Below are positions 1,679-34,063 of a stretch of 64,000 nt of DNA, piece after piece. This stretch comes from a virus. The stretch lies in IMG/VR virus record IMGVR_UViG_3300032007_000018, positions 8,445 through 72,444 of that record; one strand, 5' to 3'. The first letter of the stretch is position 1. Every line of letters begins with the position of its first letter. Made by a program: the position numbers and the translations under genes. The notes under the pieces were generated by a model. The model was not told where the DNA came from and did no database searches. It saw nothing but the letters and a program-made list of their open reading frames with translations.

Positions 1679-1694
1679 TTTTAAAAAAATTTTT

Positions 1695-1703
1695 TGATAT
1701 AAT
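1695..1703 (+). promoter_or_regulatory. Extended -10 promoter element TGATATAAT upstream of CDS 1769.
   Basis: The same TGnTATAAT motif recurs at 4143, 7613, 15496 and 18697, each 30-70 nt upstream of a gene start. Confidence 0.4.
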
Positions 1704-1768
1704 TTTTACATAAGGTAAAGAAATTACCGAGAAATAAAAAAATATTTTTTAACAAGGAGAAATTTATT

Positions 1769-2035
1769 ATGGCTATGAAGGAAAATTCTAAGAAGGTTCT
1801 TGAGTATTTGAAGACTATTAACGGTCAGGACGTTACCGCTGCTGATGTTGCCGACGCTCTCGGTCTTGAAAAGCGCTCTGTTGATGGTATTTTTACCTCT
1901 GCTATCCAGCGCAAGGGTCTCGGTATCCGTACCCCTGCTGAGATTGAGCTTGACGATGGCACCCACAAGGCTGTTAAGTTCCTTTCTCTTACCGATGCAG
2001 GTATGGCATTCGATCCCGATGCCGATGCTGAGTAA
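1769..2035 (+). CDS. Small acidic winged-helix-like DNA-binding protein (88 aa). Strong RBS AAGGAGA; codon usage is GC3-rich like highly expressed genes.
   Basis: ORF track. The wHTH-like segment VTAADVADALGLEKRSVDGIFTSAIQRKGL is flanked by a strong promoter and terminator. Confidence 0.65.
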   Translation: MAMKENSKKVLEYLKTINGQDVTAADVADALGLEKRSVDGIFTSAIQRKGLGIRTPAEIELDDGTHKAVKFLSLTDAGMAFDPDADAE

Positions 2036-2050
2036 TTAAAGCATAAATTA

Positions 2051-2087
2051 TGCGGGGTGGGTTAATCGCCCACTCCGCATTTTTTAT
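2051..2087 (+). terminator. Rho-independent terminator (stem tgcggggtggg/cccactccgca followed by a T-run).
   Basis: Inverted repeat plus TTTTTTAT immediately after the TAA of CDS 1769..2035. Confidence 0.7.
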
Positions 2088-2088
2088 A

Positions 2089-4145: not shown

Positions 4146-4151
4146 TATAAT
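4143..4151 (+). promoter_or_regulatory. Extended -10 promoter TGATATAAT upstream of CDS 4189.
   Basis: Motif recurrence (see 1695). Confidence 0.4.
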
Positions 4152-4188
4152 ATATATATAAAGAAATGAAAAAGAGGTTATATAAGTT

Positions 4189-4533
4189 ATGTCATTGAAA
4201 CAAGATTTTATTAGTTATGTTGAAAGCAATTTTAGCAAGAACCCTATGCCCGAAAATTTAACTGAATATTGGGAAAAATTTAAGGGCGGCTCCAGCGGCG
4301 GAGATAAGCCGCAGTTTACCGAGAACGGTAAAAAAATTCTAACTTTCCTCCAGATGAATGCAGCTACTCGCACATGGAAGTCAAAAGATATCGCGGATGA
4401 AATGTTTATTTCTTCTCGCACAGTATCTGGCGCCATCCGCAAGCTGGTAACTGACGGATATGTGGAGAAAGTTGGTCAAGACCCTACAATATATTGCATT
4501 ACCGAAAAAGGAATTAATGCACAAATTGAGTAA
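4189..4533 (+). CDS. Winged-helix (MarR-like) DNA-binding protein, 114 aa.
   Basis: ORF track. wHTH segment DIADEMFISSRTVSGAIRKLVTDGYVEKV; RBS AAGAGG. Confidence 0.65.
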   Translation: MSLKQDFISYVESNFSKNPMPENLTEYWEKFKGGSSGGDKPQFTENGKKILTFLQMNAATRTWKSKDIADEMFISSRTVSGAIRKLVTDGYVEKVGQDPTIYCITEKGINAQIE

Positions 4534-4594
4534 AAAATTGGTCAAAATCCTTTCATACTATAAAAATAATTTTTATATTTAATAGAATGGAGGA

Positions 4595-5521
4595 TTGATA
4601 AATATGATCAATGTTACAGAGGTTTCTATACAAGACTATTTTAATAAAAATGAAGAAGATAAGCAAAAATTTTATGATTTGATTTTAATAAATAATAATA
4701 AAGTTTCATCTAATACTCATTATAAAACGGTTATTTCGCCTGCGCCGCAAGCAAAAATCCCAGAAAAATTTTTTCATCAATTACAAGGCAAATTAAAATA
4801 TATTGCTCCACTACGAAAAAAGCATAAACAAAATGGTGGACTATCATTTTTAACCCTATGCGATTGTGGATAGTGGCATATTTTAGATGCGATAGATTTC
4901 AGAAAAGAAAAATAGACAATGTGTCCAACATGTAAATATAATAATATGACAACTATGAAGAATATTTCTGGATAGATTTTTGGATAGCTTTAGGCAATAC
5001 GCCCATCATCAAAACGTGGTTCTGATGGTTCTGTATATTGGATTTGTCAGTGTATAGATTGCGGTAATCAGTAGGAAGTAATTAAATATAATTTAACTAA
5101 AAAAGGTCATTTATGTGCTGTTTGCGGAGAAAAATCTAAAGGAGAATATAAAGTTGCTCAAATGCTTTAGGAAAATAATTTATGTTTTATAAGAGAAAAA
5201 ACATTTGAAGATTGTTTATTCCCAGATTCTTTCGCTCATGCAAAATTTGATTTTTTTGTAGATAATAAATATATTATTGAGATTGATGGATAGCATCATT
5301 TTTTTCCAGTGAAATATGGAAAAAATATAAGCGATCAAGATGCAAAATTATTATATAATAAAGTCCTTAATCACGATAGATACAAAAACCAATATTGTTT
5401 TTTGCATCAAATTCCTATTATTAGAATACCTTATTTAGCTATAGAAACTTTAAAGATAGAAGATTTAATGGTTGAAACAAGTAAATTTTTATTATATAAT
5501 ATAAGTATAAAAAATAATTAA
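4595..5521 (+). CDS. Putative freestanding homing endonuclease: repeated Zn-ribbon DNA-binding modules (YWICQCIDCGN) plus a C-terminal DUF559/Vsr-like PD-(D/E)xK nuclease domain. About 9 in-frame TAGs.
   Basis: Track ORFs 4595..4873 and 5309..5521 are in the same frame and the intervening frame is open except for TAGs. C-terminal FDFFVDNKYIIEIDGQHHF...IIRIPY. Paralog of CDS 15928..16809. Confidence 0.6.
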
Positions 5522-5535
5522 GGAGAATAATAATT

Positions 5536-6468
5536 ATGAAAACTATGATAAATAGCACACATGTCGAGGGCTTAGTTTACGAATCTACTCTTGAGCTTCG
5601 CGTTTCCGGCGAGAATTCTAAGAATCCCGGCACCGAGTTCATTATGGGTAATTTGAACATTGCAACTGATAATGACTGCACAAATATCGTTCCAGTGCAT
5701 TTTACTTATGTGACCGCAACTACTTCCAAGGGTAATGCAAATGCTACCTTTGGCGTCCTCAAGGACATTATTGATGGTAAGATTGGGACCGTTATGGCTA
5801 ATGGCGCAGAGAATGCGGGCAAGGTTCGCATCGATTCTGCTATCGGTCTTAATGAGTTCTATTCCGATAGAAATGGTAAGGAAGAGCTTGTAAGTGCAAA
5901 GCGTAATGAGGGTGGATTTGTTCATACTGTCGCTACTCTGAACGAAGACGAAAAAGCTCGTAATACTTTTACTGCTGATATGCTGATTACCAGCGTAACT
6001 CATGTTGATGCTGACGATCTTAAGGGAACTAAAGAGAAGGCTCTTGTTCGCGGCTGCGTTTTTGACTTCCGCAAAGCAGTTCTTCCTGTTGAGTTCTCTG
6101 TAACCAATGCTCGTGGTATGGATTATTTTGAGGGACTTGATGCTTCTCCTAAGACTCCTGTATTTACCAAGGTTTGGGGCCGTCAGGTTTCTAAGACCGT
6201 GACCAACGAGAAAATTGAGGAGTCTGGTTGGGGCGAAGCTAACGTTCAGACAAGCACCAGTACTCGTCGTGACTGGGTTATCACTGGTAGTAATACTGAG
6301 CCTTATGAGTGGGATAGCGAAGAGACTATCACAGCTAAGGAACTCACCGAGGCTATGGCAAATCGTGAAGTATATCTCGCTGGCATTAAGCAGCGTTAGG
6401 ATGAGTATAAGGCAAGTAAGGCTGCTGCTCCCGCGGCGGCTCCTGCCACAGGTGGGTTCAACTTCTAA
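5536..6468 (+). CDS. Hypothetical abundant protein (310 aa; possibly an ssDNA-binding partner of the downstream Sak4-like ATPase). It reads through the TAG at 6397 and ends with ...GGFNF at TAA.
   Basis: ORF track 5536..6399 plus an in-frame extension. Codon usage is GC3-rich and highly biased. It lies immediately upstream of the recombination ATPase. Confidence 0.55.
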
Positions 6469-6480
6469 GAAGTTGAACCC
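6444..6480 (+). terminator. Perfect 11-bp hairpin (gggttcaactt/aagttgaaccc) overlapping the stop of CDS 5536.
   Basis: Inverted repeat read directly from the sequence; the downstream T-run is weak. Confidence 0.5.
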
Positions 6481-6564
6481 CGGAAGTCTCTGTTGATATA
6501 ACAACATATAAGAATTTATAAAAAGAGAAGAATTAACAGTATTAAAAAATAAGGAGACATAATT

Positions 6565-7563
6565 ATGGCAGAAATTTCCCTACTTGACCTTAAACCACAT
6601 TAGGTTTCTCGTGACCTGCGCGGTTATTCTGTAATGTTTTATGGAACATATAAAACAGGAAAAACAACTATCGCAAGTCATTTCCCAGGCGCCCTCTTAT
6701 GCGCCTTTGAAAGAGGATATAATACTCTTCCCGGTGTTTATGCTCAGCAGATTCTTTCATGGGGCGATTTTAAAAAGGTTATTAACCAGTTAAAGCAACC
6801 TGCTGTTGCTGAGAAATTCCAGACTATCATCATTGATACTGGCGATATCGCATATGATATGTGTGTCAAATATATCTGTTCTAGAGAATCTACCGCAGAT
6901 AAGGTCTATGAAACTATTGGCGATATTCCCTATGGCAAGGGTTATACTCTTGCCATGCAAGAATTTGATGAACAACTTCGTAAAATTCTCCAGTTAAATT
7001 ATGGTCTTGTCATTATTTCTCATGATAAAGACAAGGTTTTTAAGGATGAAGCTGGCCAAGAATATAATAAAATCATTCCCACTATGGATAGTCGTGCTGC
7101 TCTTGTTTGCGAACGCACTTGTGACATTATTGGTTATGTTCGTGTTGTAAACACTGAAGAAGGTCAGCAGACTCGTCTTTTCATGCGTGGAACTCCTCGC
7201 TATGAAGCAGGTTCTCGATTCCGCTATACTCCAGATTCAATTGAGTTTACATACGATGCTCTTGTAAATGCAATTGCCGATGCTGTTGAAAAAGAGGCTT
7301 CACAGGGCGCAAATCGTGTAACTGATGAAAGTCAGGCTGCAAAAGTTTACGCTGAAGAAGAATCTTACGATTTCAAGGGTATGATGGACGAGTTCCAGAG
7401 TCTCTGTGGCACTCTGCTCCAGAAGAGTCCTAATATGCCGGCTAAGATTACTGCTATTGTTGATAAGCATCTTGGCAAGGGGAAGAAAGTTGGAGATTGC
7501 ACCGAAGCAAATGCTCCACAGCTCGATCTTATTTTGTATGATTTGAGAGAGCTTAATAAGTAA
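6565..7563 (+). CDS. Sak4-like RecA-family recombination ATPase (AAA_24-like), with one in-frame TAG.
   Basis: Walker A GTYKTGKTT. ATG 6565 has RBS AAGGAGA and is in-frame with track ORF 6634..7563. Confidence 0.7.
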
Positions 7564-9958: not shown

Positions 9959-12099
9959 TGTTAGTCTTTGATAAACAAGAAATAAGAGACAGTTTATCAA
10001 TCGACGATATTTTTGACCTTCTAGAAGAGTGGGGCGGTGAGCCAGAACATTGTCCAACTGGCCTCATCGCCCGTACTATTTGTCATAACTTGCTAACAGA
10101 TGAAGCATCACGCAAATTATATTATTACGAGAACACTGGGCTATTTAGATGTTATACAGGGTGTGAAGATCCAGTCTTCGACATTTTCCAACTCTGTATA
10201 AAAGTAATGAATCTCCAGCATAATGTCGTATACGATTTAAATGATGCGGTCAGATGGGTGGCAAGAAGATTCGGTTTATCTGGCAGAGAAGAAGATAGCC
10301 CAGAAGAAGAAGGACTTGAGGATTGGAAAATTTTAGCAAACTATTCACGTATTTAGGATATACAAACTGCAGCTCCTCATGTCGTTCTCGAAGAATATGA
10401 TGATACAATTCTAACTCGATTTAATTATAATGTAAAGATAAAACCTTGGCTTGATGAAGGCATTTCTCAATAGGCGATTGAGCATGCCGAGATTGGCTTC
10501 TATCCAGGAGATGCACAAATCACTATTCCACATTTTGATAAGAATGGCAGATTTATCGGTCTGCGCGGACGCACAGTAGTTGCGGAAGATGCAGAAAAAT
10601 ATGGCAAGTATCGTCCCATAAAAGTCAATGGGCAAATGTATAATCATCCCCTTGGATTAAATCTTTATAATTTCAATAATAGTCGTTGTATTATTCCAAA
10701 GATGCGTAAAGCGATTGTTTTTGAGGGTGAACTATTCGCCCTAGTCTACTTTTCCCAGTTGCTACTGGGGGTCTGCGCGAAGGGAAAAATTCCCGTCAAT
10801 TTTTGGAAAGGCGCAGGCTAACGGGGAAGCCTAAAAATTTTATAAATTCATGGTAATCCCGTGGGAAAATCTGTTTAAACATCTAACTTCATTTTTCATA
10901 TATCAGTGAGAAAAGGAGTTGATTGTATGAACGTTATTTATGCTTATAAAAAGAAAAGTATAGATAAGATTGTTTATGTTGGTTAGACAAATAATTTAGA
11001 ATATAGACATAAACAACATATTTATTATGATCCATTTAATATTAATAATCCAGAGTATGAATATCCTCTTAGTAGAGGAATTCGTAAATATGGCGAAGAA
11101 GAATATTAGTTAATTGTTTTAGAAGAAAATATTCCAGATGATAAAATAAATGAACGAGAAATTTATTGGATAAAATATTATAATACATATTTTGATGGTT
11201 ATAATCAATCTACTGGTGGCACTAGCCCAGTAAAACCAATATATACAGATGATGAAGTGAATTAGGTAATTGAAATGTTAAAAGATGAAAGTTATTCATT
11301 TAATGATATTTCAAAGAAAACAGGATTTTCGTTAACTCATATTTATAATATAAATACTGGAAAAAGGCGCCCACAGCCAAATATACAATATCCAATTCGT
11401 TCAAATAAAACAAAAGGGACAAAAGGATTAAAATTTTCTCCGGAAGAGTGTAAAAAAATTCACGAAGAAATATTAAAAAATGATAAAACATTAAAAGAAC
11501 TTGGAGAAATGTTTAACTGTTCTTCTTCAACAATATCTGATATTATTAATGGAAAAACTTAGGCATATAAATTAGAAGGTTATTCTTATCCATTAAGAAA
11601 TAATCGTTCTATAGGGGCTAAATAGATGTGGAAAAACAGATAAACCTGTATCGACTATCCCGATAAAGGGAGTAGGAGTATTATTAGCACATACTCCGAA
11701 ATAGTAGCAGTTTTAAAAACTGGAAGATATAGTCAGTGCCGTTGGAAACAATGGAATAACACGGAAAAAAGTTGTTTGTTGTATCAAACATATTTTGGAT
11801 TTGAAAATGATATTTCTGTCGCTTGTTGCGGCAGTAGCTTATCTTCCTATCAGACGCAACTTCTTATTGATGCCGGGGCGCAAGAAATTATCGTCGCTTT
11901 TGATAGATAGTTTCAAAATGTTGGTGATGATGAATATTGCCATTTAGTAAATAATCTAAAAAAGATTCAAATGAAATATAAGAACTATGTAAATATCTCT
12001 TATATCCTCGATCGCAAGAAGATAACCGGATATAAGTGCAGTCCAATTGATTGCGGACGAGAAAAATTTTTGGTATTATATAAGGAGAGGGTTCAGTGA
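9958..12099 (+). CDS. dnaG: DnaG-like DNA primase split by an intron. Exon 1 is 9958..10728 (CHC2 Zn-finger CPTG..H..C..C and the start of TOPRIM ...AIVFEGE). Exon 2 is ~11764..12099 (KSCLLYQTYFGFENDISVACCGSS...LLIDAGAQEIIVAFDRQ). Both exons are in frame 1 and carry TAG=Gln codons.
   Basis: Zn-finger and TOPRIM motifs were read from the translation. The two exons join in frame across a 1035-nt insert (a multiple of 3). Confidence 0.55.
10729..11763 (+). mobile_element. Group-I-like self-splicing intron inserted in the primase TOPRIM region, carrying a GIY-YIG homing endonuclease ORF.
   Basis: R-like element ...ATCGACTATCC (~11652-11663) and S-like element AAGATATAGTCA (~11717-11728) can pair (GACUA/UAGUC) to form P7. 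The 5' splice site follows a T and the 3' splice site follows a G. Stop codons TAA lie in every frame between the exons. Confidence 0.5.
10927..11565 (+). CDS. GIY-YIG homing endonuclease (I-TevI-like) inside the intron, with 3 in-frame TAGs.
   Basis: NVIYAYKKKSIDKIVYVG(Q)TNNLEYRHKQH...YPLSRGIRKYGEEEY(Q)LIVLEE...EREIYWIKYYNTYFDGYNQS. TAG falls on the conserved Gln of YVGQT. Confidence 0.75.
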
Positions 12100-15927: not shown

Positions 15928-16809
15928 ATGATAGGTTCTGTTTTTGGAAGTTATCTTGTCTTAGAATAGGATAAAGTCTCACATCCATCTGCGGCCGCAC
16001 GCTACTGGAAGATTAAATGTATTTATTGTGGAGAGGAAAAGATTATCCGTTCTGATACATTAAAAAAATGCCCTATTTGTAAATGCCAAAAAGATAAGAT
16101 GATAGGGAATACTTTTGGAGATTTTTTAGTATTAGAAAAATCTAAAGAAAAAGCAAAAGATAATTGTTTAAAATATAAATGCAAATGCATTCATTGTGGC
16201 AATATTGAAGAAGTGGCAAGTAATGTATTAAGATCTCAACGTAAGCACTGTAGCAATTGTCATATTCGTGCATCAACATTAATTGATTTAACCGGTAAAA
16301 CATATGGATTTTTAAAAGTTTTATATAGAGATACTAATCCAATTTATATGGGACACGAAAATGATGCTTATTGGGTGTGCCAATGCTTAAAATGTGGTAG
16401 TATAAAAACAATCAGAGGTTATTCATTACGGAATGGATTAACACAGTCATGTGGCTGTATTAAAAGTTTTGGTGAAGAACAAATCGCCACAATATTAACA
16501 AATAATAATATTCTATTTTAGCGGGAATATATATTTAATGATTGTTATTTAACTAATAAAAAAAATAAATTACGATTTGATTTTGCTATTTTTAATACTG
16601 ATGGCACTCTATCTCATCTTGTTGAATACGATGGTAAACAACATTTTGAAGAAAATATACGAAATAGCGGCTGGAATACAAAAGATAATTATTAGCAAAC
16701 CCATTTACGAGACGAGTATAAAAATAATTATTGCCAATCTCATCATATTAAGTTAATTCGTATAAGATATAATGAAGAAATAACCTTATAGAAAATATTA
16801 GGAGAATGA
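15928..16809 (+). CDS. Putative freestanding homing endonuclease, paralogous to 4595..5521: three Zn-ribbon modules (YWKIKCIYCG, KCKCIHCGN, YWVCQCLKCGS) plus a DUF559/Vsr-like nuclease domain. 3 in-frame TAGs.
   Basis: ATG 15928 (RBS AAAGGAGG) is in-frame with track ORF 16099..16521 and continues past TAG to TGA 16809. C-terminal FDFAIFNTDGTLSHLVEYDGKQHF. Confidence 0.6.
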
Positions 16810-18736: not shown

Positions 18737-21700
18737 ATGAAGTCATACTTCGGAGTTCATAATCATACAGCCGTGGGTTCAAATATTAGACTTATTGACT
18801 CAATCAACAAACCAGCAGACCTCATCGACAAAGCGATCGAGTTAGGACTCTCTGGGATTGCGATAACAGATCATGAATGTCTTTCGGCTCACGTAGAGGC
18901 TGAAAAGCATATGGCAGAAATAAAGGAAGCGCATCCAGATTTTAAACTGGCATTCGGCAATGAGATTTATCTTGTTGATGAAAGAAAACCAGGTCAAAAA
19001 TATTATCACTTTATTTTAATTGCCAAGGATGCACTAGGTCATCGCGCACTTCGAGAACTAAGTTCAAGGGCGTGGATGAATTCGTATGTGGACCGCCGTA
19101 TGGAGCGTGTTCCAACTACGAAAGAGGAGTTAAAAGAGATTGTAAATAAGTTCAAAGGTCATTTGATTGCAACAACCGCTTGTATTGGTGGAGAATTGCC
19201 AACTCTCGCATTGACTTATACAAAAGCAAGAATGGTAAATGATAACAACAATGCAATGTATTATTACAAAGAAATTGACAAGTTTTTGAACTATTGTTTG
19301 GAACTATTTGGAGAGGATTTTTACATTGAGTGCGCGCCGGGAACGGCCCCAGATCAGGTGGCGGCAAATAAAGCCTGTCGGAAAATTTCAGATTTTTATG
19401 GTATTAAAATGGTAGTCGGGACAGATGCGCACTACCTAGATAAAGACGCAAGGGCCGTTCATAAGGCTTACTTAAACTCCAAGGAAGGAGACCGCGAAGT
19501 CGATGCGTTTTATGAGTATACCTACCTTATGGATTACGATGAAGTTACGAATCTATTAGGTTTTACTTTTGATGGAGATATGGATTATGCATATCAAGTA
19601 GCGGATAACACTCTAGCAATACAAGAGAAGATACAAATGTATTCTCTCTTTCACAAACAAGATATCCCATCAGTAGAAGTACAGAATTATCCAAAGTCCG
19701 CGTGGTGGGGAGTAAATAACGACTACGCGAATGAAATGGAAAAGTACCCAACCTTAAAGAAACTATTCACATCTGACGATATTCAAGATAGATATTGGGT
19801 AAATCAATGTTGGGATAAACTCAACGAGATTGGCCATGGTTGGGATAATTATAATGAAACTGGCGATGATCGTTATCTCGTGGAGCTTGAAGAAGAGGCG
19901 CGAGTAAAGAGTGTCATTAGTGAAAAGTTAGAAACAAATATGTTCCGTTATCCAAATACACTTCAACACTATATTGATTTGATTTGGGATTGCGGTTCGA
20001 TGGTAGGTGCCGGACGAGGTTCATCTTGTGCGGCGTTAAACCATTATTTGATGGGTATAACGCAGTTAGACCCGATTGAATGGGAGCTTCCATTCTTCCG
20101 TTATTTGAACGACGAGCGTGTTGAATTAGGCGATATTGATATTGATATCTGTCCTTCCAAGTGCGGTCTCGTCTTACAGAAGATTGCGGCTGAGCGCAGT
20201 CAGATGTTTAATGATGATGTTCCGGAATGGGCGAAGAAGTTGTTTGGTTGTACGAGAATCTCAACTTTTGGAACTGAAGGAACAAAGTCGGCAGTTTTGA
20301 CAGCGTGCCGTGGTTATCGGTCTGAGGATTATCCCGATGGAATTGATGTTGATGAAGCGCAGTATATGGCATCATTGATTCCTCAAGAGCGTGGATTCTT
20401 GTGGCCGATTAAAGATGTTATCGAAGGAAATGAAGAGAAGAATCGTAAGCCAGTAGCAAGTTTCATTCGAGAAATCAATAATTATCCGGGACTTCTGGAT
20501 ATTGTTAAAGGTATTGAAGGCTTGGTAAGTAAGCGTAGTTCTCACGCATCAGGTATCGTTCTTTTCGATGGTGACCCATTCGAGCATAGCGCTTTTATGA
20601 AAACTCCAAAAGGAGAAATCATTACTCAATATAATCTGCACGATGCAGAGTATATGGGATTAACAAAATATGACTTCCTGGTAACAGAAGTTCAAGATAA
20701 AATCGTTCAAACAATCCAGTTCCTCCAGGAGGATGGAGAGATTGAAAAAGATTTAAGTCTGCGCGAAGTCTATAATAAGTATCTGCATCCAAGCGTATTG
20801 CCGATTAAAACAGATACAAAAATGTGGGATGCATTGGGCGATGTATCGGTTATCAATACATTCCAATTCGATAGCGCAGAGGGATCAAAGGCAGCAAAAC
20901 AATTAAAACCACGAACTATCTTAGAGATGGCCGATGCCAATGGTCTGATTCGTCTGATGGGCGAGGAAGGGCAGGAGCGCCCGATTGATAAGTATTATCG
21001 TTATAAAAATGATATTAGTTTGTGGTACGAAGAGATGGATAACTTTGGTTTGACAAAAGCAGAACAGAAAACTTTGGAGCCATATTTTAAACCATCTTAT
21101 GGTGTTCCACCTAGCCAAGAGCAGTTAATGAAGATGCTGATGGATCCAAACATCTGCGGATTCACCTTGGGAGAGGCGAACAACGCACGTAAAATCGTCG
21201 GTAAGAAGCAGATGAAAAAGATTCCAGCACTTCGTGAGCAGGTTCTCAAGCAGGCGAAGAGTCCGCGTCTCGGCCAGTATATTTGGAGATTTGGGGCTGG
21301 GCCGCAGATGGGTTATTCATTCTCTGTTATTCACGCACTCGCATATAGCTTCGTCGGGGCGCAAACATTGTATCTCGGCACTCATTGGAATCCAATCTAT
21401 TGGGATACGGCATGTCTGGTGGTTAATAGTGGTTCTCTTGAGGACGCGGTTGATGAAGACGGTGAAGCGCTCTATGATGAAGAGATAGAGGAAGAAGCTA
21501 CCGATGATAAGAAAAAGAAAGCAACAAGTACTGACTATGGTAAAGTCGCAAAAGCATTGAATGATATTATCAATGCCGGTATTAACGTCAGTCTTGTGAA
21601 TATAAACGGTTCTGACTTTGGTTTTAAGCCAGACGTAAAGAACAATCGAATCCTCTTTGGTATGAAAGCATTACTGAATGTAAATGATGATTTGGTAAAA

Positions 21701-22747
21701 CGAATCATTGATAATCGTCCATATAGAGGAATTAAAGATTTTTATAAAAGAATCAAGCCAACTAAGCAAGCAATGGTCTCTCTTATAAAGGCTGGCGCCT
21801 TTGATGATATGATGGAGAGAAAAATTGCGATGGCATGGTATATCTGGGAAACTTGCGATAAAAAATCAAGATTGACTTTGCAGAATTTCCCAACGTTAGT
21901 AAAACAAGATATGGTTCCGAAGGATACGCCAGAAAGAGAGGCCGCGTATTCAATATATGAATTTAATCGGTATCTTAAAGCCATATGTAAAACTAAAGAG
22001 TATCCTAATGATTATCGCCTTGATCCTCGCGCAATTGAATTTCTTTATAAGATGGGATTTGAAAATCTGATAGTAGATGATAATCTTTTGGATATGAAGA
22101 AATGGGATAAGAAGTACCAAGGATTCATGGACGTATTCAGAGAGTGGCTGCGCGCAGACGGCGATGAGATTCTAAATGAACTTAATACGAGAATTTTCAA
22201 AGCCGACTGGGACAAGTATGCAGGCGACGCAAATTATTCTGCATGGGAAATGGAAGTTCTTTGTTTCTATAAGCATGAACACGAACTCGCGCATGTTGAT
22301 ATGAAGAAATATGGTTTGAGTAATTTCAGCGAGTTGCCAGAAGATCCAGAAGTAGAGAGAACATTCTACAAGGCAAATAAAGCAATCAATATATTCAAAC
22401 TGAGCCGTATTGCAGGAACCTGTATAGCAAAAAATAAAGTAAAGAGCGTAGTTACAATTCTAACAACTGATGGCGTTGTTAATGTCAAGTTCAGAAAAGA
22501 ATATTTCGCATTGTTCGATAAGAGAATTTCTGAGCGTGGCGAAGATGGTGTAAAGCACGTCGTTGAAAAGAGTTGGTTTGATAGGGGAAGTATGATTATG
22601 GTACAGGGTATCCGGTCTGGTGATACATTCATCACAAAGAAGTATGCATCAACAGTTGGGCATCAATTGTATCATATTATTGAAGTAACTCCAAGTGGAG
22701 ATTTGATTCTTCAGAACGAAAGATATAAAGGGGAGGGTGGAGAATGA
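18737..22747 (+). CDS. dnaE: DNA polymerase III alpha subunit (DnaE-type, N-terminal PHP domain), 1336 aa, with no in-frame TAG.
   Basis: N-terminal PHP motifs (HNHT...ITDHE) and length. An uninterrupted 4-kb ORF with RBS AAGCGGAGG. Confidence 0.75.
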   Translation: MKSYFGVHNHTAVGSNIRLIDSINKPADLIDKAIELGLSGIAITDHECLSAHVEAEKHMAEIKEAHPDFKLAFGNEIYLVDERKPGQKYYHFILIAKDALGHRALRELSSRAWMNSYVDRRMERVPTTKEELKEIVNKFKGHLIATTACIGGELPTLALTYTKARMVNDNNNAMYYYKEIDKFLNYCLELFGEDFYIECAPGTAPDQVAANKACRKISDFYGIKMVVGTDAHYLDKDARAVHKAYLNSKEGDREVDAFYEYTYLMDYDEVTNLLGFTFDGDMDYAYQVADNTLAIQEKIQMYSLFHKQDIPSVEVQNYPKSAWWGVNNDYANEMEKYPTLKKLFTSDDIQDRYWVNQCWDKLNEIGHGWDNYNETGDDRYLVELEEEARVKSVISEKLETNMFRYPNTLQHYIDLIWDCGSMVGAGRGSSCAALNHYLMGITQLDPIEWELPFFRYLNDERVELGDIDIDICPSKCGLVLQKIAAERSQMFNDDVPEWAKKLFGCTRISTFGTEGTKSAVLTACRGYRSEDYPDGIDVDEAQYMASLIPQERGFLWPIKDVIEGNEEKNRKPVASFIREINNYPGLLDIVKGIEGLVSKRSSHASGIVLFDGDPFEHSAFMKTPKGEIITQYNLHDAEYMGLTKYDFLVTEVQDKIVQTIQFLQEDGEIEKDLSLREVYNKYLHPSVLPIKTDTKMWDALGDVSVINTFQFDSAEGSKAAKQLKPRTILEMADANGLIRLMGEEGQERPIDKYYRYKNDISLWYEEMDNFGLTKAEQKTLEPYFKPSYGVPPSQEQLMKMLMDPNICGFTLGEANNARKIVGKKQMKKIPALREQVLKQAKSPRLGQYIWRFGAGPQMGYSFSVIHALAYSFVGAQTLYLGTHWNPIYWDTACLVVNSGSLEDAVDEDGEALYDEEIEEEATDDKKKKATSTDYGKVAKALNDIINAGINVSLVNINGSDFGFKPDVKNNRILFGMKALLNVNDDLVKRIIDNRPYRGIKDFYKRIKPTKQAMVSLIKAGAFDDMMERKIAMAWYIWETCDKKSRLTLQNFPTLVKQDMVPKDTPEREAAYSIYEFNRYLKAICKTKEYPNDYRLDPRAIEFLYKMGFENLIVDDNLLDMKKWDKKYQGFMDVFREWLRADGDEILNELNTRIFKADWDKYAGDANYSAWEMEVLCFYKHEHELAHVDMKKYGLSNFSELPEDPEVERTFYKANKAINIFKLSRIAGTCIAKNKVKSVVTILTTDGVVNVKFRKEYFALFDKRISERGEDGVKHVVEKSWFDRGSMIMVQGIRSGDTFITKKYASTVGHQLYHIIEVTPSGDLILQNERYKGEGGE

Positions 22748-27802: not shown

Positions 27803-28284
27803 GAATACTTGCTCTAGATTAGGCCAGTCGCGTCTCAGGCTGGGCGATCTTCGATGAAGATAATCTTGAGCAGTATGGAAAGATTGATGTAAGTAAATAT
27901 TATGAACTTGGCGAGAGACTCCACGTAATACGCCAAGAGGTAGAACATCTAATAGATGATGAGCATATTGATGCAGTTGTGCTTGAAGATATCTATATGG
28001 ATGGTTAGAGAGTAAATAATGTATAGACTTTTAAAGCTCTCGCAGAAGTCTTTGGTGTTCTATATGAATTATGTGTAGATATGGAAAAACCGGTTGAAGC
28101 TGTCCTAGCTGGAACCTGGAAATCTACACTCGGAATTAAAGGCAAAACGAGACCCGATCAAAAAAGAAACGCACAAGAATGGGTAGTTCAAAATTACGGA
28201 GTAAAACCAACCCAGGATGAATGTGATGCCATCTGCATTGGCGCTCATAAAGTGCGCTCAATGGTAAATGATTGGGGAGAATAA
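27799..28284 (+). CDS. RuvC-like Holliday junction resolvase, 3 in-frame TAGs.
   Basis: MRILALD(Q)ASRVSGWAI...DECDAICIGA. ATGA overlap with dut; in-frame with track ORF 28081..28284. Confidence 0.65.
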
Positions 28285-28296
28285 GGAGGCAATAAG

Positions 28297-28770
28297 ATGG
28301 CAATTTTAATTGGTAGCAAAATACTTGCTAGCGATATAGTTAATGGTCTTGGTAAAGTATAGACAGGTTCTTATACTGGAACAGGAGCTAGTGGTTCTAG
28401 TAGAAAAAATTCTATTACTTTTAATTTTACTCCAAAATTCGTATTGTTTTTTGGCGGAGGTCACTATGCCTCAAGTATCTGGGGGGATGTTGGGTATACC
28501 GGTGCTAATACTGGTTTTTCTTTTTGGATAAATACCGATCCAAACGTTATTTTTTTAGGTCCAGAATTAGATTTTAGTGATTAGCAAACCATTTATACTT
28601 CAGATTATACTAAAGCCTCTTTATCTGGAAATACATTATATTTTTGGACAGAGACAGGATCAGCGCAATCACCGGGGGCATATACCTAGAGCGGAAGCTA
28701 TGTACAAAATGCTTCTGGTCTACAATTAAACGTCTATAACCTTAAATATAGATGGGTAGCTTTTGGTTAA
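28297..28770 (+). CDS. Hypothetical beta-rich protein (157 aa, 3 TAGs).
   Basis: ATG with RBS TAAGGAGG; frame open to TAA apart from TAGs. Confidence 0.45.
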
Positions 28771-28783
28771 GGAGATAAAAAAT

Positions 28784-29185
28784 ATGGAACTTAAAGAACT
28801 ATTAACTACAATTACACAAACTGTAATTATTCCTCTTTTAATTGCTTTAGTTGGCTATGCCGTTAAATGGCTTAACGCAAAAGCTAATGAGATTAAGACA
28901 AAAACAAAAGATGAAACTACAAAAAAATACATTTCGATGCTTAATGATACAATTGTATCTGCGGTAATTGCTGTAAATCAGACGTATGTAGATGCACTTA
29001 AAGAAAAAAATGCTTTTGATATTGAAGCATAGAAAGAAGCATTTAATAGGGTATATGAAACTATTATCGCAACAATGACAGAGGAATCTGACAGATATTT
29101 AAGTGAAGCTATTGGCGATTTAGATGAATATATTAAAACAAAAATTGAAGAAGCGGTAAAAGAACATAAACTCGTAAAATAGTAA
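28784..29185 (+). CDS. Small membrane protein (1 TM; holin-like candidate) that reads through TAG 29030 to TAA 29185.
   Basis: RBS AAGGAGAT. TM segment LLTTITQTVIIPLLIALVGYAV. Confidence 0.45.
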
Positions 29186-29193
29186 AAAAAATA

Positions 29194-29231
29194 AGGGCGA
29201 CAGTCTTAATTGACTGTCGCCCTTATTTTTT
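29194..29231. terminator. Bidirectional rho-independent terminator (agggcgacagtc/gactgtcgccct, flanked by an A-run and a T-run).
   Basis: It sits between the convergent genes 28784..29185 (+) and 29232..29696 (-). Confidence 0.7.
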
Positions 29232-29696
29232 TTATAATTGTTTATTAAACTTTTCAACTACACTCGCGTGTAAGGCATCTCCTCTATGGTTGCCACCAAG
29301 TCCTTTATAAGCAGCATAATCTTCCTCAAACTGCGCGTATTCTTGAATGGTGATAACATGGTCTGGCTTTAATAGTTCTTCACACATATCTCTAAACTAT
29401 TTACCTTGGATAGATAAAATCCCAGTATTTAAATTTTCAATAGCAACAAAAATTGAACTTATCTCTTTATTAATCCTATCGTCTTCTTCTCGCAGCATTG
29501 CTACTTCGTCTTCTCGTTCTTGAATCAATCTATCCATAACTTCACTTTTAGCCTTCTCTTCGCGTTCTTTCCATTTCTCTTCAAAAGCGGCTTTTTGTAA
29601 TTTTACATAATGCTTAGCAAATAATGCAATTCCACCAGCTATAAGCATGCAAAGCCAATTAACCCAATACTTTGCAATCCATTCTAAAACTTCCAT
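29232..29696 (-). CDS. Membrane-anchored coiled-coil protein (i-spanin-like candidate), 154 aa, TAG at 29397.
   Basis: Track ORF 29397..29696 continues in-frame through TAG to TAA at 29232. N-terminal TM plus EEKWKEREEKAKSE coiled coil. Confidence 0.45.
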
Positions 29697-29788
29697 TGTA
29701 TCAAACTCCTCCTTTTATTTTGCTGTGGAAATTTATCAACCCTTTCAAAATATTTAAGTATTATGATACTACATTTAGTAAGTTCTGC

Positions 29789-29813
29789 CCGTTGGGAAAA
29801 ATTTCCGGAAATT
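29789..29813. promoter_or_regulatory. 25-bp palindromic motif GGGAAAAATTTCCGGAAATTTTTGG, copy 1 of 2 in the divergent intergenic region.
   Basis: The core AAAAATTTCCGGAAATTTTT is a perfect 20-bp palindrome. Related copies are at 29867..29891 and 10781..10805. Confidence 0.5.
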
Positions 29814-29866
29814 TTTGGGCGAAGAAGGAAAATGAATTAAAACTAAATCTCATATACTATTGCGGA

Positions 29867-29891
29867 AAGGGAAAAATTTCCGTGAATTTTT
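29867..29891. promoter_or_regulatory. Palindromic motif copy 2 (GGGAAAAATTTCCGTGAATTTTTGG), ending 20 nt before the ATG at 29911.
   Basis: See 29789. Confidence 0.5.
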
Positions 29892-29910
29892 GGTAAAAGG
29901 AGGTTTAGCA

Positions 29911-30309
29911 ATGCCATATCAACCACAGAACTATTATTATCAGCCCCCAACAACTCAGCCTCGTTAGCCTTTATTTGGGTTAAAAGGACGTCCAGTGACT
30001 GGGTTAGAAGAGGTAAGGGCTGCCGCAGTTGATTTTGATGGAACAGTTTCATTCTTTCCAGATTTGGCCAATGGAAAGATTTATACAAAGCAATGCAATG
30101 TAGATGGAACTGCATCGCTTAACATGTATGAAATTAAAGAAATCCCTGCGACTCCAGAAGCAAATCCAAATGTTTATGTAACCCGAAAAGAATTTAACTC
30201 CGTAATGGAAAACCTAAAACAGATATTGGCGCATGCTAATCTTGTGGAGGAAAAAAGTCCTGATCAAACTAAATCCGAACAAACTTCTACTCCTGAATTC
30301 AATTTTTAA
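29911..30309 (+). CDS. Hypothetical protein with a Q/P/Y-rich N-terminus (132 aa, 1 TAG).
   Basis: RBS AAAAGGAGG; in-frame with track ORF 29995..30309. Confidence 0.5.
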
Positions 30310-30328
30310 GGAAAGAGAGGTTTCTTAA

Positions 30329-30568
30329 ATGACGAATCCAATTATGCAGTTTATGCAAATGGTTAGAAGCGGCGGAAATCCAGAAGCAATGATGATGAAT
30401 ATGCTCCAATAGAAAGTAGGAAATAGCCCAGTGGGACAAAACCTATTAAAAATGGCGCAAAATAACGATGGAAAGGGGATTGAAAAAGTCGCTCGTAACT
30501 TGTGTGCGCAAAGAGGCCTCGACTTCGACAAAGAATTCGCTGCTTTTAAGCAGCAACTAGGATTATGA
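30329..30568 (+). CDS. Hypothetical M/Q-rich small protein (79 aa, 2 TAGs).
   Basis: ATG 30329 is open to TGA if TAG is sense. Confidence 0.45.
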
Positions 30569-30582
30569 AGGAGGAAAACTCA

Positions 30583-31380
30583 ATGTTTAACACAAGTGAA
30601 GGTTATAGTTTATCTGATATCGCTGCTGCTACAGGTAATCGTGGCGGCCTGTTCGGCGATGGTGCTGGTTTTGGCGGATGGTGGATCATTCTACTCTTCC
30701 TGTTTGCTTTTGGCGGCTGGGGCAATGGCTTCGGCGGAGGCTGGGGCAACAATGGCATAACCGCGGATGTTGGCTACAATTTTGATATGCATGATGTATC
30801 TTCTGGTATTAGAGATCTTGCTTCTAGCACAGCAAATGGTTTTTATAATCTTAATACCGGTTTACTGAATGGCTTCTCCGGTACTCAGGCTCAGATTTGT
30901 AATACCGGCTTTGATACCATTCAGGCTATTAATGGTCAGACCATTAGCGCACTTCAGAGCGCAAATGCACTTCAGGCTCAGCTTGCTGCACACAGCGCCG
31001 ATGAACAACTCTGCTGCTGCCAGACTCAAGGCAAGATTGATTCCAATTTCGCAACTCTTAACTATAATCTTGCCACAGAAGCTTGCGCAGATCGCGCTGC
31101 GGTTACTACTGGCGTCCGTGATGTTATTGATAATCAGAACGCTAATACTCGTCAGATTCTTGACTTCTTAGTTCAGGATCGTATTACTGCTCTTACTACT
31201 GAAAATGCGGCTCTTAAAGGCCAGATTTCTCAAAGCGAGCAGAATGCTTATCTCATTAATGCTTTACGTCCAGCCGCAGAACCCGCATATCTTGTAGCAA
31301 ATCCATACACCGGCACAATCGGCACCTATGGATATAATGCTATGTATGGCGGACCAGTTTGCAACGGATACATGGGTTAA
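30583..31380 (+). CDS. Gly/Trp-rich membrane protein followed by a Q/A/N-rich region and a Cys cluster (CCC). GC3-biased codon usage.
   Basis: GGWWIILLFLFAFGGWGNGFGGGWGNNG; RBS AGGAGG before ATG 30583 (track ORF 30565..31380). Confidence 0.5.
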   Translation: MFNTSEGYSLSDIAAATGNRGGLFGDGAGFGGWWIILLFLFAFGGWGNGFGGGWGNNGITADVGYNFDMHDVSSGIRDLASSTANGFYNLNTGLLNGFSGTQAQICNTGFDTIQAINGQTISALQSANALQAQLAAHSADEQLCCCQTQGKIDSNFATLNYNLATEACADRAAVTTGVRDVIDNQNANTRQILDFLVQDRITALTTENAALKGQISQSEQNAYLINALRPAAEPAYLVANPYTGTIGTYGYNAMYGGPVCNGYMG

Positions 31381-31399
31381 TTAAGGAGGTAAACGAATA

Positions 31400-31821
31400 A
31401 TGGAAATAACTGCTAATGCGGCTCAGATAGTAGCCGTTAATCAGCCTGTTCTTTTTACCGAGACTGCTATTCCCGGTAATTGCTCTATGATTCATAGAGA
31501 GGGCAGTGGGTTAGTTGGCTTGCGCGGACTTCCTAATGGACAGTGTCGCGCAAGATTCCTCGTTGAATTCGGTGCTAATATTGCGGTGCCTACTGATGAA
31601 ACAGTAGGCCCCGTAAGTCTCGCCATCGCAATCAACGGAGAACCAGTCGCTACTTCATAGATGATTTCAACTCCTGCTGCCGTTGAAGAATTTAATAACG
31701 TAGGAGCAAGTCTTTACATTGACGTTCCTATTGGTTGTTGCAGTCAGATCAGTGTTGAAAATACTGGAACTATTCCTGTAAGCGTTCAAAATGCTAATTT
31801 CATTATTGAGAGGGTGGCGTG
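31400..31821 (+). CDS. Hypothetical beta-rich protein (140 aa) that reads through TAG 31658.
   Basis: RBS AAGGAGG. Track ORF 31400..31660 extends in-frame to TGA. Confidence 0.5.
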
Positions 31822-32415
31822 ATGGATCAGCTAAAAACAATTAAAGAACAATTAGTTATGTAGGTCCAAGGCCAAATGGGTGATTTACGCTGCGTAGATA
31901 CCGAAGAACTTGGCGACGTAATTGATATGATTAAAGATCTTGCAGAAGCAATGTATTACTGTTCTGTAGCAGAAGCAATGGAAGATGCTAAAGAAGGTGA
32001 AGAAAAACGCCAAACTTATTATTATATGGAGAAATATTTACCTTATTATCCATATAATGGTAGAGAGGGTGATTATCACGACGGTAGAATGTATTATAAT
32101 GGTGGTTCTTCTTCTGGTTCTGGTGGTAGCAGTCAAGGAGGGTCTCAAATGAGCGGTGGCAGTAGCAACTACTACGAAGAAACTTATCCTATGATGCACG
32201 ATGAGCGTGAAGGTAAAGCTGGATAGAAGCGTAAGATGTATATGGAATCTAAAGCTATGAATCACGATTAGCCAAAAAAGATTCAAGAATTAGATGAATA
32301 TATGAAAGAATTAACCAGCGATATTACAGAAATGATATCTGGAGCTTCCCCAGAAGAGAAAGCACTATTGCAGCGCAAGATGAACACTTTAGTAACTAAG
32401 TTACAAAATGTTTAA
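31822..32415 (+). CDS. Tyr/Gly/Ser-rich low-complexity protein (197 aa, 3 TAGs).
   Basis: YYYMEKYLPYYPYNGREGDYHDGRMYYNGGSSSGSGGSS... In-frame with track ORF 31876..32226. Confidence 0.45.
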
Positions 32416-32719
32416 GATTAATGGGGTTTGGTGGGATGTGAAAAAAGTCTCACCAAACCATCCAAAAGTACGAAGATAGAATGGTTAGTATGCGCTTGCG
32501 GCATGCGATGATGATACTAAAACCATTTATCTAAGTTGGAGTATTCCAAAATGGAAGCTAAAAAAAGTTCTTTGCCATGAGATTACGCATGCGGCAATGT
32601 TTAGTTATAATGTCTATATGACAGTTGATTAGGAAGAGTTAGTAGCCGATTTAATTGCGACTTATGGTGAAGAAATTATTGAAGTAACCAATAGAATTTT
32701 CAGTAAAATAGCAAAATAA
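32408..32719 (+). CDS. Small Zn-metallopeptidase (HExxH; ImmA/IrrE- or SprT-like), 103 aa, 3 TAGs.
   Basis: ...KVLCHEITHAAMFSY... It overlaps the upstream gene by 8 nt. Confidence 0.55.
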
Positions 32720-32721
32720 AA

Positions 32722-32760
32722 AAGGGAGATACCTTTATGGTATCTCCCTTTTTTTTTATT
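32722..32760. terminator. Bidirectional terminator (agggagatacc/ggtatctccct with A-run and T-run) at the convergence point of the + and - modules.
   Basis: Read from sequence. The - strand fibre gene stops at 32759. Confidence 0.7.
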
Positions 32761-34063
32761 ATCTAATTCTAATCCAAACTCGATCTTTTACTTCAACATT
32801 TCCAGTACCCCACGTCTCATAATCGGGAACTGCACTAATTGTGCCAATAATACGACTTGGATAATCTTTTTCTTCCTCTGGCGTCATAATTGAAACTGTA
32901 CCATTTGGGCCAGAACATACAGGTTCTCCAATATGCTTGCGGAATTCTTCTCTGTCTTCATACGGGTAAGCTAAAACACGCCCAGAAGAAGCAATAGGTG
33001 TTTTACAATTATCTGTTTCACCGATTGCGAAACCAAAAGTATCTGAAACTATTTCACAACCAGGTTGAAGTCTATTATCAGTTAATACGAGAGTATCATC
33101 ACCAACTTCGCGTACACAACGACCTGGTTCTAAAACTTCTGATTGACGATATTCTGCATAGTCATTCCATACTGCGCCGTAAACTTTTGAAGCATATACA
33201 TTTGTTAAAGCAGTGCCACCATTACAAAAACGGTAAGCTGAAATCGTAGCACTAGATGTACCATCTGCCCACTTATATCCTACATGAATAGTATTACTAC
33301 TAGAAAATTTATTATTAAATCTTATTTCATTTGTTGAAACTAAATTTAAATAATTTGCATAAGTAGCAGTCGTTGCGGTTGCTGCGTTACCAGATAAATT
33401 TGCTACTTTTAATGTTTGAGTCGAAGTCTAATAAGCAAAATTATCATCGTAAGCTGGACGGCCGGTTACATTATCATTATAAGCAAACCAGACTCTTCTC
33501 CATGTTGCACTAGATGATGCTGCATCTCCAGCAGCTAGATTTGTTAATTTACTTGCTGTTGCGGCATTACCAGAAATGCTAATCCCCCAAGTGCCACTGG
33601 CATTACTACCATCGGTAGCAGCTAATGTTTTAGAAGCACTTGGCAAAGTATAGGTAGCTCCACTTGTACCAGATATTTTCATGTACCATTTTGGATTATC
33701 ATCTGTTGCACCGCTACAACTAGTTCCTCCAAAAGTGACAATCGGCTGGCTATGACAACAATCTAATAATCCTCTAGTGTCATTGCATCCCCACACGAGA
33801 GATGCACTATATGTCGCACTATTCCAAGCAGCTGGACTATTATTGTAAGCTATCGCAATAGAGGGTGAATAACCTCTACCATTAAGAGTTGCCCATCCTC
33901 CAGAAGATAATGAACCAGTATAGGCTTTAATATTAGCTTGTAAATAATATGAAGTTGCAGTAGGAACACCATTATTTATATAAACAGGTTGCGTTCCACT
34001 ACCATATGTATTAACTAGTTTTTTTGCCTCATGGGATGTAAATAAATTTGACCCAGTAGCCAT
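32759..34063 (-). CDS. Tail fibre protein (434 aa). It reads through the TAG at 33428 into a 222-aa C-terminal extension.
   Basis: Track ORF 33428..34063 plus in-frame continuation to TAA 32759. RBS AAGGAGG. Gly/Ser/Thr-rich fibre-like sequence. Confidence 0.55.

Follow-up and report, generated by a model that had tools for sequence, protein, structure and literature searches.

What does a viral operon do when none of its small proteins looks like a standard replication, lysis or virion protein? The question is raised by positions 29911-32719 of a 64,000-nucleotide stretch of virus DNA (IMG/VR record IMGVR_UViG_3300032007_000018, positions 8,445 to 72,444), the whole of which is called the window here. 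Six genes, g1 to g6, follow one another on its plus strand. A first-pass annotation, made from the sequence alone, had described them as a self-contained operon of six proteins of extreme composition ending in an HExxH metallopeptidase, and had suggested host-modulating, decoration or ejected proteins as possible roles. The six open reading frames (ORFs) lie where that annotation had placed them, provided that TAG is read as glutamine, a dependence which it had left unstated.

The operon is one copy of a widespread mobile accessory unit of gut tailed viruses, a cassette that constitutes a real functional unit. It is more than a chance grouping of genes because the whole block is conserved in 88 loci, and it is mobile because its genome position differs between unrelated phages. 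As for its function, the preferred reading is a tentative one: the cassette might encode a protease-matured, cysteine-linked stalk-and-knob complex with a surface or membrane as its site of action.

Conservation and Mobility of the Cassette

Hidden Markov models (HMMs) built for each gene were mapped onto 88 related loci. In all 88 the genes lie on one strand and in the same order: an optional g0, then g1, g2, g3, g4 and g5, and at the end, where present, g6 or g7. Apparent gaps at g2 among these loci are filled by a second g2 subtype, the one found in the window. In close relatives from gut metagenomes the six genes (132, 79, 268, 140, 227, and 103 aa) keep their position unchanged; the operon thus behaves as a unit, as the first-pass annotation had proposed. 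Two types of cassette can be distinguished, one bearing g0 (usually together with g7) and one ending in the zincin g6, to which the window belongs. The g0 protein (125 aa, phrog_3754) shows a Cys/His papain-like pattern by eye and has no match in Pfam. In about half of the cassettes g6 is swapped for other small proteins (g0/g7). In at least 24 loci a sigma-region-4-like gene of about 70 aa lies directly upstream; none was found at the operon of the window.

The site of the cassette varies from one phage to another. The endolysin precedes it in Butyrivibrio phage Ceridwen. Dulem virus 33 has it flanked by lysin and integrase, Dulem virus 39 next to integrase and replication genes, and Dulem virus 35 inside the head module, with the portal/minor-head genes on one side and the major capsid gene on the other. 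It stands in or adjoining structural genes in Dulem virus 35, the locus L041, the crAss-like cr115_1, the archaeal virus vir335, and the window itself.

Database searches return families for several of the proteins and a function for none. Matches in PHROGs were obtained for g1 (phrog_21718, E 1.7e-10), g3 (phrog_16490, E 1.3e-26), g4 (phrog_20016, E 1.6e-50), and g6 (phrog_1233, E 5.5e-15), all of them annotated as of unknown function. For g2 there were no matches in Pfam or PHROGs, and for g5 no significant match in Pfam and only marginal ones in PHROGs. Pfam, NCBIfam and PADLOC gave nothing above cut-off for the six window proteins (the NCBIfam matches were at chance level), and PADLOC at E ≤ 1 gave no match for g1-g6, g0, or g7. 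These results agree with the earlier view that no standard replication, lysis or virion protein is present. The cassette is not described in the literature consulted on BclA/C1q proteins in phages, phage-borne exosporium genes, Ceridwen, crAss "spike" genes, and Bacteroides uniformis phages.

Distribution Across Viruses and Hosts

A scan of species-representative genomes added 204 further loci, nearly all in metagenome-assembled genomes (MAGs) or isolates of Clostridia and in phage or prophage contexts. Both central families are large. The g4 family comprises more than 8,000 clusters at 90% identity, with homologues also in unrelated phages of standard genetic code; the g3 family comprises 1895 clusters at 50% identity, whose members measure about 230-300 aa each and are never fused to another domain.

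The g3 family extends well beyond the Clostridia phages. Full-length homologues (HMM E 1e-40 to 1e-44) that share the hydrophobic peptide, the CCC cluster and the tail described below are found in many crAss-like phages, where depositors labelled them "spike protein/glycoprotein" or "outer capsid protein/viral fiber". Others come from the B. uniformis phage C3_41T2LP, from XP41-N3 and CPD1, both phages of C. perfringens, and from viruses that have been assigned to Methanomassiliicoccales archaea (HMM E 3.7e-15). In Bacteroides and crAss-like phages the genes after g3 encode, besides a CC-motif beta-rich protein and a beta plus coiled-coil protein, one protein rich in R/D/Y and a DUF7841 protein whose tail is rich in R/G/Y; the isolate C3_41T2LP has a metallopeptidase in this block too. 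The genome cr115_1 is itself TAG-recoded, and DUF7841-like proteins stand in for g5 in a few Clostridia cassettes (e.g., L071). In XP41-N3 (positions 5550-5927) the place of g4 is occupied by a 125-aa protein with a CNRRCNCCNRR cluster followed by a beta-rich body. It is reminiscent of Ena subunits, which combine an N-terminal Cys connector with a jelly-roll; an identification as Ena/DUF3992 was tested and rejected, with no match in Pfam.

In culture, Ceridwen grows lytically on Butyrivibrio fibrisolvens (PMC7372960). Several cassette contigs have been placed in unlikely MAG bins, namely Methanobrevibacter (L009, L030), Anaeroplasmatales/Mollicutes (L011, L015), Alloprevotella (L034, L035), and Akkermansia (L056). 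These may be mis-binned phage contigs or may reflect a truly broad host range, a choice which bears on any argument from host independence.

Components of the Cassette

The most strongly conserved member of the cassette is g4. The g4 of the window holds a TAG codon, and the structure was modelled on P0001, a proxy of 90% identity, for which AlphaFold returned a predicted local distance difference test score (pLDDT) of 87 and a predicted template modelling score of 0.83. The predicted fold is a stand-alone, ten-stranded TNF/C1q-like jelly-roll that spans the whole 140 aa. In a fold search with this model, the nearest folds were F-BclA, BclA-C, and ExsFA (also known as ExsFA/BxpB), that is, proteins of the Bacillus exosporium nap and of endospore-appendage tips; the nearest predicted viral structures were other stand-alone phage proteins of about 135 aa. 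Knobs of TNF fold are common tips of phage fibres, and such proteins appear at ranks 14, 15, 43, 48, and 53 of the same search. At the level of sequence the relationship is faint. The Pfam family BclA_C (PF18573) is matched by 4 of 56 g4 homologues (best E 4.4e-7) and not by the g4 of the window at E ≤ 5, and neither the single sequence nor the family profile has a match in the Protein Data Bank (PDB), so that even the profile misses BclA. Compared with the BclA group, g4 is viral, being carried also by viruses of hosts not known to sporulate, and has a GCC loop (residues 112-114) that is invariant in its family. Unlike BclA, it has neither a run of collagen-like GXY triplets nor an exosporium-targeting N-terminus, and g1, g2, g3, and g5 have no counterparts among exosporium proteins. 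The likeness to spore-coat proteins that the first-pass annotation had drawn for g5 gains structural support in g4 rather than in g5.

The g3 protein carries the only strongly hydrophobic segment of the operon, and no signal peptide is present in the other five proteins. Residues ~22-57 contain the hydrophobic peptide WWIILLFLFAF within Gly/Trp-rich, uncharged flanks. There follow two predicted long polar helices (~69-147 and 156-227), with the CCC cluster (143-145) at the turn, then a conserved LRPxxxPAY motif and, last, a tail rich in Tyr/Gly(/Cys). In the family as a whole the motif reads SQxAQNxYLxxLRPxPxPAY, the Cys-rich tail is conserved, CCC is kept in 106 of 121 representatives, and the hydrophobic core, 13 aa long at the median, is aromatic and has Gly-rich flanks with few Lys/Arg. 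A low-confidence AlphaFold model (pLDDT 56.6) suggests two helices of about 75 residues with CCC at their turn. Relative to the window proteome, Gly and Ala are each enriched 2.0-fold. The GC content of the gene (0.46) is the highest of the operon, largely owing to Ala/Gly codons, and its third-position GC is 0.365, against a window mean of 0.259. The crAss-like "spike" and "viral fiber" genes of phrog_16490 are true homologues of g3, with the Gly/Trp-flanked peptide, the CCC cluster, a SQQAQTANxxNQxRP motif and a GCGC tail; their names are guesses derived from databases, and their neighbours are not detectably homologous to g1, g2, g4, or g5. A separate proposal, that g2 corresponds to an N-terminal extension of the Bacteroides and archaeal g3 proteins through gene fusion, was rejected (HMM scores of ~0-3 bits).

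The N-terminus of g3 (GGLFGDGAGFGGWW...) resembles viral fusion peptides. The single sequence has no match in the PDB, and a profile of diverse g3 members gives weak, non-significant ones, mostly to influenza HA2 (E 0.03-0.5) and also to the coronavirus HR1/HR2 core (E 0.049). In the HA2 alignment, the GGWxGxxNGW of the fusion peptide leads into the long helix and then to a Cys near the chain reversal. Composition and coiled-coil bias are a plausible source of both matches. With the class I fusion subunits (influenza HA2, coronavirus S2, retroviral TM with its CX6CC), g3 has in common an architecture only: a hydrophobic Gly/aromatic peptide, a helical hairpin, a Cys cluster at the reversal, a separate Cys-bearing binding subunit, and a protease. 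It differs from them in that the viruses bearing the cassette are non-enveloped and that g3 has no C-terminal transmembrane anchor, apart from the non-significant matches and the low confidence of the model.

The last gene, g6, encodes a minimal gluzincin type of about 100 aa, with HEITH at residues 57-61 and Glu77 sixteen residues downstream. Only four columns, H57, E58, H61, and E77, are invariant among 19 homologues of 20-59% identity. In the PDB, where the single sequence finds nothing, the family profile has its best match in selecase MJ1213 (110 aa; E 6e-4, 22.6 bits), the alignment covering a beta-strand, the active-site helix and the helices that follow; IrrE (E 0.008) and Wss1/WLM (E 0.012) come next, and projannalysin scores E 0.71. 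Because those four residues are invariant and selecase is the best solved relative, g6 is plausibly an active Zn-peptidase, as had been suggested from its HExxH motif. Its size and the spacing of HExxH and Glu are those of the minigluzincins (selecase MJ1213 and projannalysin), from which it differs in being phage-encoded and, apparently, translationally coupled to a low-complexity protein. All these matches, to the minigluzincins and to other zincins, are marginal, and the Pfam scores lie below cut-off: DUF6782 (19 bits), SprT-like (16.7), and M78 (12 bits against a cut-off of 22; E 0.19). Unlike ImmA, g6 has no partner repressor, no HTH/Xre-type repressor gene being present in or adjoining the operon, and unlike SprT/Wss1 it has no DNA-binding domain.

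For the remaining proteins, g1, g2, and g5, no relatives of known function were detected. The g1 family occurs in nearly all cassettes with its architecture unchanged: a Tyr/Pro/Gln-rich N-terminus, a beta-rich domain of ~55 aa, a "YVTRKEF" helix, and a charged tail. Its profile has no relative in the PDB, and its sub-threshold Pfam matches vary by member, among them a weak one to LPD3 (E 0.002). In every g6-type cassette the window-type g2 separates g1 from g3, and the C. perfringens phage XP41-N3 has it too. The g5 protein, 227 aa long in close relatives, is built of an acidic N-terminal helix, a Tyr/Gly/Ser(/Arg)-rich disordered middle of varying length, and a conserved C-terminal helix; this three-part build is kept throughout the family alignment (A8), the middle being R/G/Y/S-rich in other phages. 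Measured against the window proteome, Pro is enriched 2.7-fold and Gln 2.0-fold in g1, Met 6.3-fold and Gln 3.3-fold in g2, and Met 4.8-fold in g5. The composition labels which g1, g2, g3 (CCC at 143-145), and g5 (Tyr/Gly/Ser-rich middle) had been given hold in this comparison. The description of the whole set as extreme, in turn, is right for g2, g5, and the N-termini of g1 and g3, and overstated for g4 and g6.

Genetic Code of the Phage

TAG is a sense codon throughout the 64-kb window. The 37 curated genes contain 136 in-frame TAGs, next to 340 CAA and 183 CAG codons, and the same genes stop at TAA (26) or TGA (11) and never at TAG. As many as 27 TAGs are found inside a single ORF of 1645 aa. 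Once TAG is counted as sense, the coverage by ORFs of at least 100 codons rises from 54.8 to 81.9 kb, and readthrough merges ORF pieces into frames of up to 2427 aa. The dUTPase of the window reads GDKIG-TAG-GIF, with TAG in place of the motif Gln, which we take to be the Gln of the GxRIAQ family motif. Because of the many sense TAGs, the exclusive use of TAA and TGA as stops, and the Gln of the dUTPase motif, the phage is assigned on sequence grounds to genetic code 15 (TAG=Gln). In other gut phages code 15 has been validated by metaproteomics (PMC9523058). No tRNA genes, suppressor tRNA(CUA) included, were found in the window by ARAGORN. Contigs with close relatives of g3 and g4 reach up to 160-197 kb, and therefore the code-switch genes probably sit outside the window.

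Nine in-frame TAGs, distributed over five of the six genes and absent from g3, are listed for the operon (Table 1); examples of their contexts are CCTCGT TAG CCTTTA in g1 and ACTTCA TAG ATGATT in g4. The standard bacterial table was considered for 29911-32719 and rejected, five of the six genes being broken by it into short ORFs. As a consequence of the recoding, the operon genes of this phage escape standard gene callers. The density of TAG is uneven across the window: there is none in a 1336-aa DNA polymerase III alpha-like ORF (18737-22747), and 1.3-2.6 per 100 codons are found in the minus-strand ORFs past 49.9 kb and in the low-GC ORFs mentioned below.

Layout, Boundaries and Regulation

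The operon is bounded, as had been proposed, by an upstream region bearing a palindrome and by a bidirectional terminator (Table 1). This terminator is common to the operon and to a convergent minus-strand ORF (32759-34063) that stands at the head of a large minus-strand block. Good ribosome-binding sites precede g1, g2, g3, and g4. An alternative ATG of g3, at 30565, has no ribosome-binding site, and the relatives begin with MFNT. Translation of g5 and g6 is suggested by the sequence to be coupled to that of the preceding gene, because the start of g5 overlaps the stop of g4 (ATGA) and the start of g6 overlaps the end of g5.

The palindrome is a 24-nt motif, GGAAAAATTTCCGNGAATTTTTGG, with three copies in the window against none expected. 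The copy nearest to g1 forms a hairpin followed by a U-run, ends ~17 nt before the start codon, and is listed as terminator-like. It is kept at the equivalent position in the relatives L005-L009, where the stem shows a compensatory change (GCGGAAA/TTTCCGT versus GCGGGA/TCCCGC), and the fold z-scores of the motif are -2.6 and -2.8. A scan of 28-34 kb with Rfam returned no family for the motif and only terminator hairpins below threshold. The motif could be an attenuator, an operator or a specialised promoter. The copy at 10783-10806 lies upstream of a low-GC ORF.

Table 1. Coordinates of the operon, its signals, its immediate neighbours, and analogous g3 blocks in two other genomes (window positions unless a genome is named)
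Feature	Position	Strand	Description
Holin gene	28784-29185	+	phrog_13712, E 4.8e-31; directly upstream of the operon region
Bidirectional terminator	29185-29232		Closes the holin gene; 20-bp stem
Convergent gene	29232-29696	-	154 aa; hydrophobic N-terminus, charged helical body
Regulatory spacer upstream of g1	29697-29910	+	214 bp; two copies of the 24-nt motif
GGAAAAATTTCCGNGAATTTTTGG, first copy	10783-10806		Replication arm
GGAAAAATTTCCGNGAATTTTTGG, second copy	29795-29818		g1 spacer
GGAAAAATTTCCGNGAATTTTTGG, third copy in order of position	29870-29893		g1 spacer
g1	29911-30309	+	132 aa; in-frame TAG at 29965
g2	30329-30568	+	79 aa; in-frame TAG at 30410
g3	30583-31380	+	265 aa; no in-frame TAG
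g4	31400-31822	+	140 aa; in-frame TAG at 31658
g5	31822-32415	+	197 aa; in-frame TAGs at 31861, 32224, 32269
g6	32408-32719	+	103 aa; in-frame TAGs at 32477, 32486, 32630
Bidirectional intrinsic terminator	32718-32754		16-bp stem, T-runs on both strands
g3 block of cr115_1 (L090)	1586-6631		
g3 block of C3_41T2LP (L089)	3512-6757		

Regarding the surroundings, the GC content of 30-32 kb (0.428) is the maximum of the window, compared with ~0.36 around it. Cumulative GC skew peaks (2.20) at ~28000-34000, where the plus- and minus-strand blocks converge and the operon lies at the strand switch. No endolysin was identified near the holin of the window. Between a RuvC-like gene and the holin, 28297-28770 (+) is a gene with three TAGs whose 157-aa product is rich in Gly/Ser/Thr and has no match in Pfam or PHROGs; different genes occupy this position in close relatives. 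Three plus-strand ORFs (4604-5521, 10927-11643, and 15928-16809) are of low GC (0.26-0.29) and dense in TAG. The start of the second resembles a GIY-YIG homing endonuclease, and the three probably represent mobile endonucleases that inserted into the replication arm. Relatives, too, differ by GIY-YIG/endonuclease insertions, for instance L006 and Dulem virus 33, in the latter case inside the cassette. The minus-strand arm (32759-63962) contains large ORFs of 434, 534, 723, 2427, 598, 353, 984, 986, 857, and 1645 aa, which, to judge from size and repeats alone, probably encode parts of the tail or fibres; an (S/T)HAEG motif recurs in the 534-aa protein. Seven window proteins, six of them from this arm, had almost no matches in PHROGs and none with a named function.

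Proposed Mechanism and Alternative Explanations

From the folds, motifs, synteny and distribution presented above, we infer contacts, oligomeric states, timing and location as follows. All six proteins would be made in the cytoplasm during infection. The g3 protein would be a long helical stalk, probably an oligomer, that bears a membrane-seeking peptide, and g4 a trimeric knob tied to the stalk through the Cys clusters of both proteins (CCC of g3, GCC of g4). The Met/Gln-rich g2 may shield the hydrophobic peptide of g3, and the low-complexity g1 and g5 may act as assembly or linker proteins. A component of the cassette would be trimmed by g6, whose place would be taken in other phages by the Cys/His-peptidase-like g0. 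The mature complex would exit the cell with the virion, after which the knob would bind and the hydrophobic peptide insert. Such a working logic can be likened to that of the BclA-ExsFA exosporium nap, with its knob, anchor and protease, on a virus rather than a spore. The decoration and ejected-protein roles offered by the first-pass annotation are close to this proposal. Since g3 is found in viruses of Bacillota, Bacteroidota and archaea, a virion or membrane role fits better than a role in a host pathway. The proposal also draws on the cassettes placed in or adjoining structural genes, on the fibre and spike labels that depositors gave to crAss homologues of g3, and on the frequency of TNF-fold knobs at the tips of phage fibres. 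A bolder version, which we consider unlikely, would make g3, g4, and the protease a class-I-fusion-like membrane-active machine of non-enveloped tailed viruses. In it, a protease-primed g3, with its Gly/Trp "fusion peptide" and helical hairpin, would be disulfide-tethered to g4 as the receptor-binding knob, and the complex would breach or fuse the cytoplasmic membrane of Gram-positive, Gram-negative and archaeal hosts.

Several observations weigh against a stalk-and-knob complex on the virion. The g3 model is of low confidence, and the parts given to g2 and to g1 and g5 are drawn from composition alone. Many phages have the cassette away from their structural block, for example after the lysis genes, and in XP41-N3 and C3_41T2LP it stands among recombination/replication genes. 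In the window, the operon is on the early/replication-arm strand, and its motif recurs only at 10783, in the replication arm, being absent from the 30-kb minus-strand gene block. The sigma-region-4-like gene that at least 24 cassettes have of their own suggests separate regulation. Finally, outside the Clostridia phages the partners of g3 are other beta-rich Cys proteins with no detectable homology to g4. Some of these points speak for the main rival, a complex that stays with the cell, which is only slightly less probable. In that case g3 would sit in the cytoplasmic membrane with its long domain in the cytoplasm, recruiting g4, g1, and g5, and the complex, in an infected cell or a lysogen, would set the timing of lysis, prevent superinfection or alter the envelope. 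The separate sigma-like regulator and the absence of GGAAAAATTTCCGNGAATTTTTGG from the minus-strand block are in line with this, as are the holins and endolysins directly upstream in many loci (the window and cr115_1 included) and the frequent position between lysis genes and integrase, a classical moron site; moreover, assembly on the cytoplasmic face is self-consistent for partners that have no signal peptides. Nonetheless, a core of ~13 residues without positive flanks is an atypical membrane anchor, the Cys clusters would remain reduced in the cytoplasm, known exclusion and lysis-control functions are performed by single small proteins and not by 6-7 genes, and the cassette is also found in phages that are lytic in culture and inside head modules.

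A cytoplasmic role in host takeover or anti-defence appears improbable. Here g1, g2, and g5 would form an assembly or condensate organised by g3 and g4, and g6 would cleave a host target. In composition, g1, g2, and g5 are indeed typical disordered proteins of the kind that self-associate, the position of the cassette is in or adjoining early/replication regions in several phages and in the window, and metallopeptidases of the polyvalent-protein type occur in the Bacteroides version, next to the sub-threshold LPD3 match of g1. However, no match to PADLOC or to any anti-defence family was obtained, a TNF-fold knob and a hydrophobic peptide are unexpected for such a role, and the presence of the g3 family in bacterial as well as archaeal viruses argues against a specific host target. 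That the phage decorates the spores of its host with BclA/ExsFA-like and Cys/Tyr-rich proteins, in mimicry of exosporium or coat, is very unlikely, even though the closest folds of g4 are F-BclA, BclA-C, and ExsFA, its Cys-, Tyr-, and Gly-rich partners and protease recall coat/exosporium assembly, and most cassette hosts are Clostridia. The host on which Ceridwen grows lytically, B. fibrisolvens, is to our knowledge non-sporulating, cassettes are found in MAGs labelled Subdoligranulum and Agathobacter, and g4 has no collagen-like region or exosporium-targeting N-terminus. From the host of Ceridwen and the occurrence of g3 in Bacteroides/crAss-like phages and in viruses assigned to methanogenic archaea it follows that a sporulation-specific or peptidoglycan-specific role is disfavoured, and the sporulation role once suggested for the operon is thus unlikely. 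Lowest of all stands the view that g6 is an anti-repressor protease of ImmA/IrrE type controlling induction and that the other five genes are unrelated morons. The HExxH motif and the weak matches to IrrE and M78 are compatible with it; against it, the M78 score is 12 bits where 22 are needed, no repressor gene is adjacent, and g6, apparently coupled to g5 in translation, always follows it and gives way to g7/g0 in roughly half of the cassettes. The other five genes are strictly syntenic in the 88 loci and so are not independent morons. Cleavage of a repressor-like target, which the first-pass annotation had put forward for the peptidase, finds no support in these data.

Relation to Known Systems and Significance

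The cassette resembles phage morons in its variable sites at module boundaries, its own regulatory region and terminator, and its raised GC content. It differs from them in scale, since morons are usually single genes whereas here 6-7 genes are kept in strict order in thousands of viruses. The folds of its components, the TNF/C1q knob and the minigluzincin, are known; the whole system matches nothing described. The cassette is taken here as an accessory assembly of knob, anchor and protease, with a real chance that it is something of a categorically new kind.

The cassette takes up ~4-9% of some phage genomes, and its conservation implies a strong general selective advantage in the gut. Three cultured phages (Ceridwen, XP41-N3, and C3_41T2LP) bear all or part of it, which makes it experimentally tractable. 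Whichever reading is true, be it a virion knob, a membrane-active entry system, or control of the envelope or of lysis, a large block of viral "dark matter" would receive a name. If the fusion-like reading were true, gut viruses would share horizontally a host-independent device for entry or exit, an unrecognised functional class.

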